A DNA stretch of 5,716 nucleotides. Source: Escherichia coli (GTDB taxonomy: Bacteria; Pseudomonadota; Gammaproteobacteria; Enterobacterales; Enterobacteriaceae). Every line of letters begins with the position of its first letter. Within the stretch, counting starts at the first letter, position 1. Positions 1 to 5,716 of this stretch are shown one piece after another. The DNA is taken from assembly GCF_013315695.1 (NCBI RefSeq), contig NZ_CP054357.1. One strand, given 5' to 3'. The translations under genes and the position numbers were made by a program. The notes under the pieces were generated by a model. The model saw only the letters and a program-made list of their open reading frames with translations. It searched no databases and had not been told where the DNA came from.

Positions 1-423
1 ACTATCGTCATGGCAATATCTCTTTTCGCGTTATCCTCAACATCCAGCACAGAACAACATTTTCACATTATAAAAATATTCGGTGGAGGCTATTTAATAT
101 ACATAGGATTAATGGGTTTAATTAATAAAAAAAACAAACAAAGAAAAGAGCAAAAACCTTTTTTGATACCATTATTAAACCCCAAGGCGTATCTTTTCTT
201 TGCTGCGTTAATACCAACCTTTATAGATAATAATACAAATATCACATTAAACTTTTTTATATTGGGTGTTTTATTTATATTTATATCATTCCTAACAGAT
301 CTTATTTACATAGCTATTAGCTTAACGATAAGGGATAAATTGACGCCATCATTCTCAAGATACATAAGCATATGTAGTTCCATTTTTATATTAGGTACAG
401 GTATTTATTTTATTTTTACGTGA
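1..423 (+). CDS. LysE/RhtB-family exporter, C-terminal ~140 codons; the frame is open from base 1, so the 5' end lies outside the linear window (it continues from 5567..5716 if the molecule is circular)
   Basis: The frame is open from position 1 (ACT ATC GTC ATG..), so the ATG at 10 is internal. The translation is highly hydrophobic with several predicted TM segments and the motif NPKAYLFFAALIPTFI, matching the conserved NPK..FL.ALFPQF region of RhtB/LysE-type translocators as I recall it. Stop TGA at 421-423. AT-rich codon usage. Confidence 0.75.
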   Translation, partial: TIVMAISLFALSSTSSTEQHFHIIKIFGGGYLIYIGLMGLINKKNKQRKEQKPFLIPLLNPKAYLFFAALIPTFIDNNTNITLNFFILGVLFIFISFLTDLIYIAISLTIRDKLTPSFSRYISICSSIFILGTGIYFIFT

Positions 424-480: not shown

Positions 481-1197
481 CTATTTCAGTATGGCATATT
501 TTTTATTTGGTGATTGTTCATTAAAATAATATCCGCTTTCGTCATCAACTAACACGCATGCTTTACGATAATCTCCACACTTCGAGAACTCGGCCAATGG
601 AGCTTTTTCTTTCCATTCTTTTAACATGGATTCATGTTTTTTCTGTTCTTCCATTAGCGAACTAATATTCATTTTGAGATATTCAGCATAGAAAACAGGA
701 GCGATCATTAGCAATAAAAATAATACAATCAACACAATTACCTTTTCGACAATCCTTGTTACTGTATACTTCTCCATTGTTTTTCTAATTATACCTGTCG
801 CAACTTCGGCCTCTCTGGTCGTCTGCTTTAATGATTCCTTTATCTCTTTACTTGTTTGCTCCTCGAAATCAACCCACTCTTTCTTTACATCATTGAGAGT
901 GAAAGATAATTTTTCGCGGAGTAATGACGTTAGTGTATCTGAGACTGATTTCTGTAATTTACAAGATGCCTCATCCATTCCTTTATTAATATAAAATTTA
1001 ACATTAGACACACTATCCCTAAAGGAATAAGAAATTCCAGAAACAACTTTACCTTCACGTTCAAGAGTACTTGTAAAGGTATTTAAGTCATTCACTCTTT
1101 CATTAAGCAGAGTAATTAGCCTGTTCATTTCTTTTATTTGTTTATCATTATACGCAACAAGAGCAGCAATTTTTCTTGAATGTTCATCCAATTGCAT
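481..1197 (-). CDS. Hypothetical membrane protein, 238 aa: N-terminal coiled-coil-like region, one TM helix, small Cys-containing C-terminal domain
   Basis: ORF with a GGAGG Shine-Dalgarno 9 nt upstream of the ATG at 1197, only 20 nt after the mobA stop. The N-terminal ~150 aa are rich in K/E/L/I with heptad-like spacing; one strongly hydrophobic segment (VIVLIVLFLLLMIAPVFYAEYL); the C-terminal ~60 aa contain CGDYRKAC. Clearly more AT-rich than adjacent mobA. I recognise no family. Confidence 0.7.
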   Translation of the reverse strand: MQLDEHSRKIAALVAYNDKQIKEMNRLITLLNERVNDLNTFTSTLEREGKVVSGISYSFRDSVSNVKFYINKGMDEASCKLQKSVSDTLTSLLREKLSFTLNDVKKEWVDFEEQTSKEIKESLKQTTREAEVATGIIRKTMEKYTVTRIVEKVIVLIVLFLLLMIAPVFYAEYLKMNISSLMEEQKKHESMLKEWKEKAPLAEFSKCGDYRKACVLVDDESGYYFNEQSPNKKYAILK

Positions 1198-1217: not shown

Positions 1218-2303
1218 TTAACGGCTCATACCATAATCACGTGAACGTGATGGTGCTGGTGAGGAATACGCACGCTGGCGCACTCTTTCTCTTTCCCTCT
1301 CCAGGTCTCTTTGCTTTTCGGCTTCAATTAGTCGTTCCTGTTGCAACTTCCGCTCCTCTTCCACCTGGAATTGCTTCATCATTGAGTCCAGCGCACCGTT
1401 AATCAATGAATTAAGCTGCATTACCTCATTGAGTTCATCAAACGAGCTTTCAACAAACGCCTTCAATTCTGCCCCAAGCTCATCCAGGCTTGGTGGTATG
1501 TTATCCCGTTCAGCTAACGCTTCCTTCAAGGTCGTTTTAAGGTCAATGATGCTGTCCCGTTCCTGCTCTGCTTCTAGCTTCTCCCGTTCCGCGTTTCTCC
1601 GTGCCAGAATTGCACAAACCTGATCAGCATTCATAACAGCAACACGAACGGGACCAAGATGAACTTCCGGTGTGCGCTTGATACCCTGTTCTTTCAGTGA
1701 ACGATGATCAACGCGCGACTGATGGCCGTGCCGCGCAAGGTGTTCATTCTGCACATCAGCCCAGTGAGAACGTAGCGCAACCAAGGCTGATTTTCGCTCT
1801 TGTGGTGTCTCACCAAAGCGTGCCTTTTTTGCACCTCCCCGCTCCGGTGATTTGCTGTTGGCACGTTTAAAAAACTGCTGCGGATCGCGTTCAATACCAT
1901 CATTAATCCGCTCGCAAAACATGATATGTGCGTGTGGTTGTTCCTTTCCGTCGATTGCACCTGGCGGATTGTGGATCGCGTACTGATAGGCATGGCGATC
2001 ACCAAGCTCCTTTTGCACGAAATCTTCAACAAGTTCTATCCGTTGTTCGCGTGTCAGTTCTCGCGGTAATGCGATCTCAATTTCACGGTATGCCGTCCCG
2101 TTTTTTCGTTCAAATTCATCTGCTGCTTTCCATAGCTCTGCGGGATTTTTCTTCGCCCATGATGGCATGTTACCGGATGACGAAAATTCCAGATCCTCCC
2201 GCGATTTGTAGTTCTTATATTCGCCGGATCTAGAAATATAATCAGCATGTTTTAAGGCTACGCCTTTTGCTCCAGTTTTAACTGTACAATGGTAGCTTGC
2301 CAT
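1218..2303 (-). CDS. mobA: MobA relaxase, MOBQ family (RSF1010 MobA-like relaxase domain only, 361 aa)
   Basis: The N-terminus MASYHCTVKTGAKG...HADYISRSGEY parallels RSF1010 MobA (MAIYHLTAKTG...KADYIQREGKY, catalytic Tyr in the ADYI motif). It also carries EIEIALPREL and the histidine motif HAHIMFCERINDGIERDPQQFFKR (RSF1010: HCHLMISERINDGIERPAAQWFKR), then VDHRSLKEQGIKRTPEVHLGP. The C-terminus is ER-rich low complexity. Comparison is from memory of the RSF1010 sequence. Confidence 0.9.
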   Translation of the reverse strand: MASYHCTVKTGAKGVALKHADYISRSGEYKNYKSREDLEFSSSGNMPSWAKKNPAELWKAADEFERKNGTAYREIEIALPRELTREQRIELVEDFVQKELGDRHAYQYAIHNPPGAIDGKEQPHAHIMFCERINDGIERDPQQFFKRANSKSPERGGAKKARFGETPQERKSALVALRSHWADVQNEHLARHGHQSRVDHRSLKEQGIKRTPEVHLGPVRVAVMNADQVCAILARRNAEREKLEAEQERDSIIDLKTTLKEALAERDNIPPSLDELGAELKAFVESSFDELNEVMQLNSLINGALDSMMKQFQVEEERKLQQERLIEAEKQRDLERERERVRQRAYSSPAPSRSRDYGMSR

Positions 2304-2333
2304 CTGCCGTTAAGCCCTCCGCAGGAGCGCACT

Positions 2334-2387
2334 GTTTCTCGACGAAGGAGAGAAACGTCTAAGTGCGCATCCCTGAATTAATCAGGG
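2334..2387 (+). other. oriT: oriT (origin of transfer) with RSF1010-type nic region; predicted nick between 2367 and 2368 on the + strand
   Basis: Inverted repeat GTTTCTC (2334-2340) / GAGAAAC (2350-2356) followed by TAAGTGCGC (2361-2369). RSF1010 oriT, as I recall it, has GTTTCTCGAAGAGAAAC then GGTAAGTGCG^CCCT. A second small palindrome CCCTGA-ATTAA-TCAGGG follows at 2371-2387. It lies between divergent mobA and mobC, as in RSF1010. Confidence 0.7.
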
Positions 2388-2421
2388 ATGATTTTAAGGT
2401 CTCACACGCAGGCAGACAAGG

Positions 2422-2430
2422 TGATATTAT
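2422..2430 (+). promoter_or_regulatory. Putative extended -10 element (TGaTATTAT) for the mobC transcript
   Basis: TG at 2422-2423 followed by TATTAT at 2425-2430, about 45 nt upstream of the mobC start; no good -35 hexamer is seen. Sequence-pattern inference only. Confidence 0.3.
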
Positions 2431-2474
2431 GCACAATAACAACTCACATTAACGGCAAAAGTGCAGAGGTAAGA

Positions 2475-2921
2475 ATGACAAATCGTGAAGAGTGGTTAAG
2501 TGCAAAAATTGCCTATATCAACGGACTGAAATCACCGTCAGAGCAGCAAAGATTACTTGTGTTACTGGCAGAGAAAAAAAACCGAACAACGACGGATGAA
2601 AAAACGTTGTCCGCACTGATACGGGCAGAAAAAACCGCAGAGAAAGCAGCCGCAGCAAAAGCCAGGGTAACGGCAATAATAGCGGCAGAACGGAAGGCAG
2701 CCGCAAGGGCGGAACGAAAGGCGCGGGATCATGAACTCTACAAGGCCGCAGGCCTCATGATTGTGGCAGGACTGGTGGACAGCAAAACCGGAAAACCAAA
2801 GTTTAGTGCTGCCGAACTGGTAGGCGCACTCGCAGGAATCGCAGAGCTACCGCGCAACCATCCAAAATGGCAGGAATGGGAAAAACGCGGGAAAGAGCTA
2901 CTCACCAAAGACAGTGCGTAA
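2475..2921 (+). CDS. mobC: MobC / TraD-like relaxosome accessory protein (148 aa from the ATG at 2475)
   Basis: Divergent from mobA across oriT. SD GAGGT sits 4 nt upstream of the ATG at 2475. An Ala/Lys/Arg/Glu-rich helical region (AEKAAAAKARVTAIIAAERKAAARAERKARDHE) is followed by a hydrophobic stretch (LYKAAGLMIVAGLVD), which resembles the RSF1010 MobC pattern (..ERKNETRRKVLVGAMILAKV..) from memory. The upstream in-frame ATG at 2388 lies inside the oriT palindrome and lacks a convincing SD. Confidence 0.7.
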   Translation: MTNREEWLSAKIAYINGLKSPSEQQRLLVLLAEKKNRTTTDEKTLSALIRAEKTAEKAAAAKARVTAIIAAERKAAARAERKARDHELYKAAGLMIVAGLVDSKTGKPKFSAAELVGALAGIAELPRNHPKWQEWEKRGKELLTKDSA

Positions 2922-2949
2922 GAGCCTCCGTTCACGTTCCGGTTCCCTG

Positions 2950-3003
2950 GTGCTTCCTCGCTCATTCGCTCGCTACGCTCGGTCATTGAGACTGCGGCGA
3001 GCA
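2950..3003. other. ssi / primosome-assembly-site-like element (ColE1 PAS-like)
   Basis: TGCTTCCTCGCTCATTCGCTCGCTACGCTCGGTCATTGAGACTGCGGCGAGC closely resembles the ColE1/pBR322 segment GCTTCCTCGCTCACTGACTCGCTGCGCTCGGTCGTTCGGCTGCGGCGAGC (from memory), which lies in the ColE1 primosome assembly region. Its function here is inferred. Confidence 0.45.
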
Positions 3004-3078
3004 CAACCACCACTCACACACAGACGCTAAAACCATTGCCAAACGAAACACGGGAAATCACCCCAAACCTACCCGCTC

Positions 3079-3097
3079 AAAAAAACGCCTACAGGCG
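3079..3097 (-). terminator. Short hairpin plus T7 run just beyond the ori (possible rep transcript terminator)
   Basis: The minus strand reads CGCCTGTAGGCG followed by TTTTTTT (plus-strand A-run 3079-3085). The stem is only 4 bp, so this is weak. Confidence 0.3.
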
Positions 3098-3130
3098 CTG
3101 TTATCTGATAAGGCTTGTTATCTGGTCTCA
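3090..3130 (-). other. ori: ColE2-type replication origin (Rep binding and priming site) immediately 3' of rep
   Basis: The minus strand reads AAAATGAGACCAGATAACAAGCCTTATCAGATAACAGCGCCTGT, with CAGATAACA repeated. This matches my recollection of the ColE2-P9 minimal origin (TGAGACCAGATAAGCCTTATCAGATAACAGCGCC). The rep stop codon TGA (3128-3130) is the first triplet of this element. Confidence 0.7.
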
Positions 3131-4057
3131 TTTTGCGAGATCTGGATCACATTTTAGTTTTCGATAGTATGTGGCACGACTGATCCCTAACGTCACCCAC
3201 GGCTTCAGAGTTCGTGCCGATGTGGCAACGGCTACACGCTTTGATTTCTGACCTTTAATAGCCTGATTTTCTGATGAATTTGCATTACCGCCCTTACGAC
3301 CTCGAGCAGCCTGTACCGCGGAAAAGCCTTCAGGAGAGAATTTGCGGTAGGTGTATTTCGCAATACTCTTGCCAATAGCCCGACATTCAGCCGGAGAAAG
3401 CGGAACGGGAAGCGATGCGTTGTACATTTCGACACGCTGAATCACTGCATCAAGCCACGGTGAGAATGCTGGCCAGCCCTGACGAATCGCCCTGTAAGAC
3501 CATTTACGGCCCTTTTCGAACAGATACCAGTTTCGCCCCATCCCGTAATCTTTATCGACGCGACGGCGCGCTGAGGCGCTCAAATCAAGATAATCCGCCA
3601 GTTCGTCGAGGGTATAGAGTTCCCAACGCCATTCCACCACCTGCCATTCCTGGTGGAACGGATTTTTGCAGATCAGGCCGCTGTAGTTCACATCCGCGCC
3701 CAGTTTTTCACACAGCGCACGCTCAATCACGGCAGCGTATTTGAGCGCCGAAGCCGATGCATCCGGCGCGGTTCTCACCGGAAGAGTGAGCGCGTAGAGC
3801 AGATGCGCGTGCCCGTTACGTGGATTTTTTACGGTGATGTTCGGGGCCGGACAGTTCCGGTCGCTCCAGTCGATCGCTGCCCCCGTCCGGTCAACGTCAA
3901 AGGCCAGCCAGTGCTGCGCATGTGGCTGGTTCTGCTGGATGAAACGGGCAAGGATGGCGATATCTTTCGGTAGAATGCGAACGCCGTACGTGAAATCGTT
4001 CGTACAGTACGGTTTGTGCGGTAATTTTTCCCTGAAGAGTTGAAGTACGGCGCTCAT
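3128..4057 (-). CDS. rep: ColE2/ColE3-family replication initiator Rep (plasmid-specific primase), 309 aa
   Basis: Translation MSAVLQLFREKLPHKPYCTNDFTYGVRILPKDIAILARFIQQNQPHAQHWLAFDVDRTGAAIDWSDRNCPAPNITVKNPRNGHAHLLYAL... is near-identical over long stretches to ColE2-P9 Rep as I remember it. GGAGG sits 12 nt upstream of the ATG, and the cognate ori-like sequence lies directly downstream. Confidence 0.9.
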   Translation of the reverse strand: MSAVLQLFREKLPHKPYCTNDFTYGVRILPKDIAILARFIQQNQPHAQHWLAFDVDRTGAAIDWSDRNCPAPNITVKNPRNGHAHLLYALTLPVRTAPDASASALKYAAVIERALCEKLGADVNYSGLICKNPFHQEWQVVEWRWELYTLDELADYLDLSASARRRVDKDYGMGRNWYLFEKGRKWSYRAIRQGWPAFSPWLDAVIQRVEMYNASLPVPLSPAECRAIGKSIAKYTYRKFSPEGFSAVQAARGRKGGNANSSENQAIKGQKSKRVAVATSARTLKPWVTLGISRATYYRKLKCDPDLAK

Positions 4058-4155
4058 GTGTTAGGATTTCCTCCGTGTGTTACGACCCACACGCCCCTTG
4101 AATTTTCGTGACAGTCTTGGCGGATCGGCACGAATTTCAGGGGCGTTTGTTTTTC
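4040..4155 (+). ncRNA. Candidate antisense RNA I (copy-number control RNA complementary to the rep mRNA leader); boundaries approximate
   Basis: Plus-strand promoter-like elements TTGAAG (4040-4045), 16-nt spacer, TAGGAT (4062-4067), overlapping the rep start codon. A long imperfect hairpin plus T-run ends at about 4155. ColE2 replicons are known to use an antisense RNA of about 115 nt against the rep leader. With this promoter the transcript would be about 80 nt, so the true 5' end is uncertain. Confidence 0.45.
4094..4155 (+). terminator. Rho-independent terminator-like hairpin plus T-run (3' end of candidate RNA I; same structure in complement forms the rep leader stem-loop)
   Basis: Left arm CCCCTTGAATTTTCGTG (4094-4110), right arm CACGAATTTCAGGGG (4129-4143), imperfect with one or two bulges and an 18-nt loop, followed by CGTTTGTTTTTC (4144-4155). 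Confidence 0.5.
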
Positions 4156-4163
4156 AGTTGGTT

Positions 4164-4192
4164 ACACTACACCCAACGGCAAATCCTGTCGA
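4164..4192 (-). promoter_or_regulatory. Putative rep promoter (minus strand: -35 TCGACA, 17-nt spacer, -10 TAGTGT)
   Basis: Reverse complement of 4187-4192 is TCGACA and of 4164-4169 is TAGTGT, separated by 17 nt. The predicted start near 4157 would give a ~100-nt rep leader fully covered by the candidate RNA I. Pattern-based only. Confidence 0.3.
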
Positions 4193-4213
4193 TCCTTCCC
4201 GAAAACCAGACCC

Positions 4214-4241
4214 ATTTACCATAACTCCTCTTGTACGTACC
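4214..4241 (-). other. XerC/XerD core recombination site (cer/psi-like multimer resolution site)
   Basis: The minus strand reads GGTACGTACAA-GAGGAG-TTATGGTAAAT. The XerD arm is identical to ColE1 cer (TTATGGTAAAT) and the XerC arm differs from cer (GGTGCGTACAA) at one position; the central region is 6 bp, as in dif and psi rather than cer's 8 bp. Accessory sequences would extend to about 4430 on the XerC side. Confidence 0.65.
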
Positions 4242-4342
4242 CTCTAAAACGCTCTCAATCGCTTTCTGACGCAAAAAACTCAAAAAGACAAGATAAACCT
4301 AGGGAAAACACAAAAAACGCGTCAGAATCGTTTTTAGGGGTC

Positions 4343-4356
4343 TGCATAACTATGCA
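4343..4356. promoter_or_regulatory. Perfect palindrome TGCATA-AC-TATGCA: candidate ARG box (ArgR accessory site) for the cer-like site
   Basis: 14-bp perfect palindrome about 120 bp from the XerCD core on the XerC side. It resembles the ARG-box half-sites (TGAAT....ATTCA) with an A-to-C substitution; cer-type sites require ArgR and PepA binding about 100 bp from the core. Confidence 0.35.
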
Positions 4357-4481
4357 CAAAAGCGATTAATGATCGGTTTCACCCCTTCAGAAGCGCGAAC
4401 TGGTCAAAACAGCAAACTTTCTCATCCAGAAAGCCAGCTGAACTAACCCGCATGAAAACAAATTTCCAAACATATCCAGTC

Positions 4482-4609: not shown

Positions 4610-5560
4610 ATGAATAATTTTATAAATGAATGTATTTCCGCTCCGAGAATAAACGGCATGGCAGAATTTTTCTCATCAACTGCATCAGGGGAAAAACACA
4701 AACCTTTTAGACTAGTAGAAATAGATGATCGGCTTTTTCATTCTTATGATTACATTAAGTTTGCCAAACACCTCACAAAAAACAGCGGCCCTTTCGTTAA
4801 TCATTATTTTTGCAGTATACCATACAGCAAGGAAGAAGAGTGCAGATTAGGAACAACAGTAATAAAATACGCAATCACGCTAAACAAAAAATTAAACACA
4901 TGGTGTCTTGGTATGGCTGAGGGCGCAATGGCAAGAACCATTTCAGAATTATCAAAAGGAAACATACAAACATTAACAACCAGTCCAACAAAAGAAAATG
5001 AACATGCATTTTTTAAGTATAGCTCAAGTGAAAACGCTTATTTTATTTGCACTCCATTTTTCCTGTTAGAGGAAAGACTAAAAAATTCAAATCTTAAACA
5101 ATTTAATCAAGGATTCGATATTATAATAGAAGACACCACATTTCAAATGTACTCACCTAACAGATCTGGGCAAATAAACCACGTAAAAAGGCTATTAAAT
5201 AATGATGGTATTTTCATATTTACAGAAAAACATAGTTCAGAACATGATGAATATCAAAAAAGAGAAATCCAAAAAGATTATTCATTCAAACAAAGGTATT
5301 TCTCGAAAGATGAGATTAACACCAAAAAGGAAATCGTACTAAACACAATGAATTTGAATGAAGTTAGTGTTGACGATATGCTTTCCGCAATTAAACAACA
5401 TTTTAAATACGCATCAATATATTGGAATAGCGGAAATTTTTACTCAATCGCCGCCAGCAATTCACTAAAACACATATCAACATTTATAAATTTATTACCG
5501 AAAGCTGCAATTCCTATGGAATATGTATATGAAAAGCTCCCACGAAATATATCATGGTAA
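4610..5560 (+). CDS. Hypothetical protein, 316 aa; possible class I SAM-dependent methyltransferase-like Rossmann core (tentative)
   Basis: SD AGAGGA 7 nt upstream of the ATG; AT-rich. The central region has MTase-like motif spacing: LGMAEGAMARTI (glycine-rich, motif I-like), then about 65 aa later FDIIIEDTTF (motif II-like), then VKRLLNNDGIFIFTE (motif III-like). No canonical GxGxG and no (D/N/S)PP(Y/F) DNA-MTase motif. Stop TAA at 5558-5560. Confidence 0.75.
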   Translation: MNNFINECISAPRINGMAEFFSSTASGEKHKPFRLVEIDDRLFHSYDYIKFAKHLTKNSGPFVNHYFCSIPYSKEEECRLGTTVIKYAITLNKKLNTWCLGMAEGAMARTISELSKGNIQTLTTSPTKENEHAFFKYSSSENAYFICTPFFLLEERLKNSNLKQFNQGFDIIIEDTTFQMYSPNRSGQINHVKRLLNNDGIFIFTEKHSSEHDEYQKREIQKDYSFKQRYFSKDEINTKKEIVLNTMNLNEVSVDDMLSAIKQHFKYASIYWNSGNFYSIAASNSLKHISTFINLLPKAAIPMEYVYEKLPRNISW

Positions 5561-5566
5561 GTAAAC

Positions 5567-5716
5567 ATGGAATATTCAACATTATTATCATTTGCTATCG
5601 TAACCTTATCGCAAACTATATCAATAGGGCCTGGCGTTGCATTGGTTATAAACAATGCCTTTTCACATGGATTAAAGTCATCAATAAAAACAAGTATATA
5701 CATAAGAATTGGCGAG
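5567..5716 (+). CDS. LysE/RhtB-family exporter, N-terminal 50 codons; 3' end runs off the window (continues at 1..423 if circular)
   Basis: ATG at 5567, 6 nt after the stop of the 316-aa gene. MEYSTLLSFAIVTLSQTISIGPGVALVINNAFSHGLKSSIKTSIYIRIGE has the hydrophobic N-terminus and S-x-GPG motif typical of LysE/RhtB translocators (RhtB: ..[20 protein letters not shown]..). There is no stop before the window end, and the window ends exactly on a codon boundary. Confidence 0.75.
   Translation, partial: MEYSTLLSFAIVTLSQTISIGPGVALVINNAFSHGLKSSIKTSIYIRIGE

Follow-up and report, generated by a model that had tools for sequence, protein, structure and literature searches.

Replicons of the ColE2 class combine a Rep primase with a tiny origin of replication, which lies at the rep gene's 3' terminus or just past it (PMC5304414). 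The stretch of Escherichia coli DNA analyzed in the current work, 5,716 nucleotides in length and referred to below as the window, holds a replicon in which the location of the origin agrees with the ColE2-related replicons described there (PMC5304414). A literature search for a ColE2-like plasmid carrying a LysE gene found only one backbone relative, pChi7122-4, a cryptic ColE2-like plasmid (PMC3251573) that can be likened to the backbone of the window by its description. The window is almost certainly one full unit of a known circular 5,716-bp plasmid of Enterobacteriaceae, opened between codons 50 and 51 of a gene for a LysE-family exporter.

The rep gene (3128..4057, minus strand) encodes a 309-aa initiator (primase) of the ColE2 type. 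The protein matches the Pfam family Replicase (PF03090) at E 9e-42. For its C-terminal DNA-binding domain, the match is to PDB chain 3vw4_A (E 2.5e-63), an entry deposited as 'Rep'; 3VW4 is presumably the DNA-binding domain of the ColE2-P9 Rep. Identity to the Rep of the colicin-E2 plasmid pIGMS5 (NC_010883.1) reaches 86%. The ori (3094..3134, minus strand) overlaps the rep stop codon and was located by alignment to the same position in pIGMS5. Its core is identical to that of pIGMS5 except for a 3-bp insertion (GATAACAAGCC in the window versus GATAAGCC in pIGMS5), and 201 plasmid records have the conserved ori sequence downstream of rep. A terminator-like hairpin (3099-3084, minus strand) follows the ori. 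In the manner of ColE2, theta replication would be primed by the Rep primase, bound to the short ori at the rep 3' end.

Relative to pIGMS5, the Rep of the window also contains a 12-aa insertion, NANSSENQAIKG, at residues 258-269 in the C-terminal DNA-binding region. This insertion and the 3-bp insertion in the ori may represent a co-varying Rep-ori pair of a different specificity type.

The antisense copy-control RNA of ColE2 plasmids is encoded antisense to the rep leader. The window has, at 4085-4150 (plus strand) and antisense to the rep leader, a long hairpin, gccccttgaattttcgtg...cacgaatttcaggggc, with a T-rich run after it. When the whole window was searched against Rfam at a permissive threshold, only a chance-level match to PK-repBA was returned, at 4095-4143 (19 bits versus a gathering threshold of 45, E 0.95); thus, a known RNA family is absent from the window.

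The mobA gene (1218..2303, minus strand) encodes a 361-aa relaxase, probably of the MOBQ type, as indicated by NCBIfam, by its annotation as MobA/MobL and by PLSDB typing. In NCBIfam, the protein matches the MobQ model at E 8e-29 with 100.8 bits, below the 200-bit cut-off, and the TraA_Ti model at E 6e-29, likewise below the curated cut-off; in PLSDB/MOB-suite, the identical plasmid is classed as MOBQ and as mobilizable. Divergent from mobA is the gene of a 148-aa mobilization accessory protein (2475..2921, plus strand), which is annotated as 'conjugal transfer protein TraD' and for which no NCBIfam match was found. Between the two genes, inverted repeats mark an oriT-like region (2327..2390, plus strand), in which GTTTCTC-N9-GAGAAAC is followed by TAAGTGCGC (repeat and TAAGTGCGC together at 2334-2368) and then by a second 9-nt inverted repeat. 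The region of the inverted repeat and TAAGTGCGC may resemble the nick region of the RSF1010 oriT. In the presence of a conjugative plasmid, the MOBQ relaxase would be expected to act on this adjoining region, leading to mobilization.

A cer-like XerC/XerD core site, GGTACGTACAA-GAGGAG-TTATGGTAAAT, is located at 4214..4241 (minus strand) and shows 0 mismatches to the degenerate consensus. It is the single match in the window, with a 6-bp spacer, and 0 matches were obtained in 200 shuffles; a search of the window for an XerCD site with an 8-bp central region gave no match. At this one site, the XerCD of the host would be predicted to resolve multimers. An earlier reading, made from the sequence only, had described the window as holding one full replicon, one mobilization module and one resolution site. 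The present inventory agrees with that description: Rep with its ori, the probable MOBQ relaxase with the TraD-like protein and the oriT-like repeat, and one XerCD core.

The same reading had proposed that the exporter gene wraps from the 3' end of the window to base 1. The 5' part of this LysE-family gene, codons 1-50, occupies 5567..5716 (plus strand) and translates to exactly the N-terminal residues of WP_000456846.1. The 3' part, codons 51-190 and the stop codon, occupies 1..423 (plus strand) and was recognized by its frame, by the profile match and by alignments. Translation reproduced the proposed geometry at both ends. From 5567 to 5716, the 150 nt consist of an ATG and 49 further codons without a stop, so that the open reading frame fills 50 codons exactly to the last base and ends on a codon boundary. 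At the start of the window, the matching frame 1 is open from base 1 to a TGA at 421-423; frames 2 and 3 in this region are rich in stops. Joined, 5567-5716 and 1-423 form a 573-nt open reading frame that encodes 190 aa plus a stop, which is the length of about 190 aa that had been claimed. From the base composition of the AT-rich block, the probability of 140 open codons from base 1 by chance is p ~2e-5, and that of 190 open codons is p ~5e-7.

Across the 5716|1 junction the letters read ...ATTGGCGAG|ACTATCGTC..., and the break between codons 50 and 51 falls within the second hydrophobic span of the exporter (residues 43-62). No direct overlap of 8 nt or more was found between the two ends of the window; thus, the window is a cleanly trimmed unit. 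Base composition is also continuous over the junction. A block of low GC content (28-34%, versus 45-59% in the backbone) reaches base 5716 and resumes at base 1, and it forms one island only when the ends of the window are joined.

Complete plasmid records place this junction in the interior of a circle. In PLSDB, at least nine records of exactly 5,716 bp match the window at 99.9% identity or more (megablast), and more are present among RefSeq complete E. coli genomes. The PLSDB records of this length derive from human and freshwater isolates of E. coli and Salmonella. Against the window, every one of them aligns in two segments, the pattern left by a circle that was opened at another point. 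One of these plasmids, NZ_CP082933.1, is the circular 5,716-bp plasmid unnamed3 of Salmonella enterica London N18-04674. The window is the reverse complement of this record rotated by 1,659 bases, with two substitutions (window positions 4341 and 5021). A 120-mer composed of the last 60 and the first 60 nt of the window occurs unbroken at position 1600 of the reverse-complemented NZ_CP082933.1, and the record annotates WP_000456846.1 without interruption at 3635-4207 (573 nt). The claim that the window is a complete circular replicon is borne out by this rotation and by the intact junction. The wrap of the exporter is a coordinate effect of opening a circle inside a gene; the gene is continuous in the cell, and thus nothing biological occurs at the ends of the window.

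A unit of this length might also be a piece taken out of something larger than a free 5.7-kb monomer, for example a head-to-tail multimer or a cointegrate. Molecules of this kind are present in the databases. These include a 17,158-bp head-to-tail trimer and records of 8.2-10.3 kb with more than one copy; the cargo block (~3 kb) is found at 99.8% identity within plasmids of 102 and 186 kb, and p838C-R1, a relative with 96.8% identity, is 30 kb in size and carries a Tn3-like insertion. The window, however, is exactly 5,716 bp in length, as are many independent circular monomer records, and it contains each backbone function once, without terminal redundancy and without foreign flanking DNA. An origin from a multimer or cointegrate thus appears very improbable, and in a multimer the gene would still run unbroken across the junction, leaving the conclusion of the earlier reading unchanged. 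The trimer record itself runs through the junction, with the start of one of its LysE genes at 8312, to which the addition of 150 gives 8462, the equivalent of window base 1. The slight doubt that remains is limited to the choice between a free monomer and a multimer or cointegrate as the origin of the window.

The joined protein is identical to WP_000456846.1, annotated as "LysE family translocator". Alignment of the joined protein to LysE-family profiles had been suggested as a check, and it was performed. Against the Pfam family LysE (PF01810, E 9e-20), residues 17-188 align as one stretch with positions 4-190 of the 193 in the model, nearly its full length and without a gap at the junction, and the match to NCBIfam TIGR00949 spans model positions 3-183 of 185. 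A Kyte-Doolittle scan detects 5 hydrophobic spans in the 190-aa protein, one of which is long (residues 128-161). The exporter is thus a small polytopic membrane protein with collinear conserved motifs, as are members of the LysE/RhtB group (~190-210 aa), and it belongs to the LysE/RhtB superfamily PF01810, from which a function in export can be predicted. At the level of individual NCBIfam models, the joined exporter scores 64.1 bits for TIGR00949 (cut-off 183.95), 52.3 for LeuE (cut-off 165) and 44.6 for RhtB (cut-off 209). None of the NCBIfam equivalog cut-offs (RhtB, RhtC, LeuE, EamB, LysE) was reached, and all scores are far below them; the exporter can therefore be placed only as a member of the superfamily, with no substrate assignable.

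The exporter was aligned with E. coli RhtB, with distant homologues and with three chromosomal LysE genes (38-41% identical); an exact-match look-up identified the RhtB query sequence as 'homoserine/homoserine lactone efflux protein'. The exporter, RhtB and the other homologues have invariant G, K..G..YL, NP and P.FI columns in common. The sequence-only reading had compared the spacing between the N-terminal GPG and the central FGGGYLIYIG segment with that of RhtB and had counted about 42 residues versus 45. These counts were not reproduced. The GPG of the exporter is at residues 21-23 and the FGGGYLIYIG at residues 77-86, with 53 residues between them. The argument from spacing nevertheless holds, because the distance from one motif to the other in RhtB exceeds that in the exporter by a single residue.

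These alignments also bear on whether the two end frames belong together at all. They could be unrelated, or be pieces of a truncated pseudogene, which stand in frame by chance, and the joined protein would then lack or double a segment. The sole point in favor of such a join is that the plasmid exporter is ~12-16 residues shorter than its homologues. The shortfall, however, is in the central loop, around residues 95-105, which lies deep within the window and away from the junction. Residues 50 and 51 (RIGE|TIVM) are ungapped in every aligned sequence, with the GE at 49-50 conserved, and the Pfam coverage is one stretch; no segment is missing or doubled at the junction in any of the alignments. 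Moreover, the identical gene is annotated without interruption in circular records, and open frames as long as this one are expected by chance at p ~5e-7. We consider a chance join to be hardly credible, and the two frames are treated below as one gene.

Directly upstream of the exporter gene, a 316-aa protein is encoded at 4610..5560 (plus strand). Profiles and a structural model assign it a class I SAM-dependent methyltransferase fold, with CmoA as the closest protein. The NCBIfam CmoA match (E 6e-6) is far below the cut-off and the Pfam Methyltransf_31 match is weak (E 0.0016), and only CmoA/YecO fell below E 0.1 in a PDB profile search. An AlphaFold (AF2) model built from 35 homologues had a pLDDT of 93 and a pTM of 0.92. 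A Foldseek search with this model returned CmoA/YecO as the best match, followed by other small-molecule class I methyltransferases.

A gap of 6 nt separates the end of the gene of the 316-aa protein from the LysE start downstream, and the two genes are probably co-transcribed. Homologues of the 316-aa protein, 43-56% identical, are widespread in Enterobacterales and Rhizobiales. In all 4 enterobacterial loci examined (Citrobacter werkmanii, Pectobacterium brasiliense, Klebsiella michiganensis and P. parmentieri), a LysE-family gene encoding 206-209 aa lies directly 3' of the homologue. The spacing of the paired genes ranges from a 4-nt overlap to a 13-nt gap, and their neighbourhoods are otherwise unrelated. 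The LysE proteins of these paired loci are the closest non-plasmid relatives found for the window exporter. Beside the rhizobial homologues, a LysE partner was absent in all 3 loci examined. The pairing thus recurs in enterobacterial loci, and the window exporter is the second gene of a conserved two-gene cassette.

To our knowledge, no member of this enzyme family has an assigned function or a known substrate. From the pairing of a CmoA-like enzyme with a LysE exporter, we infer that the enzyme may make or modify a small molecule that the exporter removes. It can be suggested, only tentatively and with the odds rather against it, that the two genes form a self-contained 'make and export' cassette, for example for a methylated or SAM-derived amino-acid-like compound, that has been spread on a high-copy mobilizable plasmid and is also present in the chromosomes of Citrobacter, Klebsiella and Pectobacterium.

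The limits of the cargo region can be seen from relatives that consist of the backbone only. These plasmids of 3.9-4.3 kb (e.g. pSF-088-3, NZ_CP012638.1) match only positions 1582-4432 of the window, at ~89% identity; thus, the cargo extends from 4433 through the junction to ~1581. This AT-rich region, which is continuous only when the ends are joined, contains the CmoA-like enzyme and LysE cassette and an orphan open reading frame of 238 aa. The latter (481..1197, minus strand, 33% GC) is annotated as the hypothetical protein WP_001175444.1; it lies 20 nt downstream of mobA, and a stretch around residues 150-175 is hydrophobic. Neither Pfam nor NCBIfam gave a match for it, and its homologues (at least 88% identity) are confined to the plasmid family of the window, with no relatives found outside. 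In position, the 238-aa frame replaces the C-terminal third of the longer, 516-aa MobA of the backbone-only relatives.

The cargo proteins were also compared with PADLOC defence models. Only weak and non-significant matches were obtained, such as one to AbiZ (E 6.5e-4) that covers a coiled-coil stretch, and these matches were set aside as compositional.

Two larger plasmids bear on the same region. In NZ_CP146684.1, a 102-kb colicin/microcin plasmid, the whole cargo block together with a 3' fragment of mobA is found at 6001-9008 with 99.8% identity, flanked by a pore-forming colicin operon and by microcin B17 immunity genes. This embedded copy suggests a relic of past small-plasmid cointegration. 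In p838C-R1 (NC_019062.1, 4940-7000), the Tn3-like element, of the TnAs1 family, lies beside or within the 5' end of the LysE gene, and this gene is annotated with a shortened product of 165 aa.

The way in which the window is read determines how its exporter is annotated. When the window is seen as a closed circle, a complete 190-aa gene is rescued; otherwise, the gene would be recorded as two fragments or as 'partial'. Such mis-annotation has occurred both in pSCU-106-7 and in protein entries that were taken from contig ends and are labelled partial. The plasmid pSCU-106-7 (NZ_CP053241.1, 1-391) is related to the window, was deposited as linear and is cut in the same LysE gene, and its LysE gene is annotated as partial because the linear record is cut inside the gene. 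Similarly, a cluster of 122-aa proteins named 'LysE family translocator, partial' comes from the ends of contigs of ~5.8 kb. The finding itself is already known: the plasmid and the intact exporter gene have been made public many times over, and for this reason their recognition here brings no new biology. One nearby item that might merit experiment is the cassette of the CmoA-like enzyme and the LysE exporter.

In comparison with known systems, the window is closest to a group of unnamed plasmids of 5,716 bp, including NZ_CP082933.1 and three from E. coli (CP056318.1, NZ_CP124378.1 and NZ_AP022820.1). All four share its length and 99.9-100% identity, and have the same gene set in the same order, with the LysE-family gene annotated as intact. 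They differ from the window only in start point and strand, together with the two substitutions in the case of NZ_CP082933.1. The backbone-only relatives, pSF-088-3 and similar plasmids, share with the window rep, the ori, the XerCD region, the traD-like gene and the 5' two-thirds of mobA. However, they lack the AT-rich cargo with the CmoA-like gene, LysE and the 238-aa open reading frame, and their MobA has 516 aa as against 361 aa in the window.

Among described replicons, pIGMS5 and the ColE2-type plasmids have in common with the window a PF03090 primase, a homologous DNA-binding domain and a short ori at the rep stop codon; unlike the colicin-E2 plasmid pIGMS5, the window plasmid carries no colicin, immunity or lysis genes. 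The exporter, in turn, shares with RhtB and the LysE superfamily the N-terminal PG-G, the central K..G..YLI..G and the NPK motifs, with a motif spacing that agrees within one residue, whereas it is only 21% identical to E. coli RhtB and has a shorter central loop.
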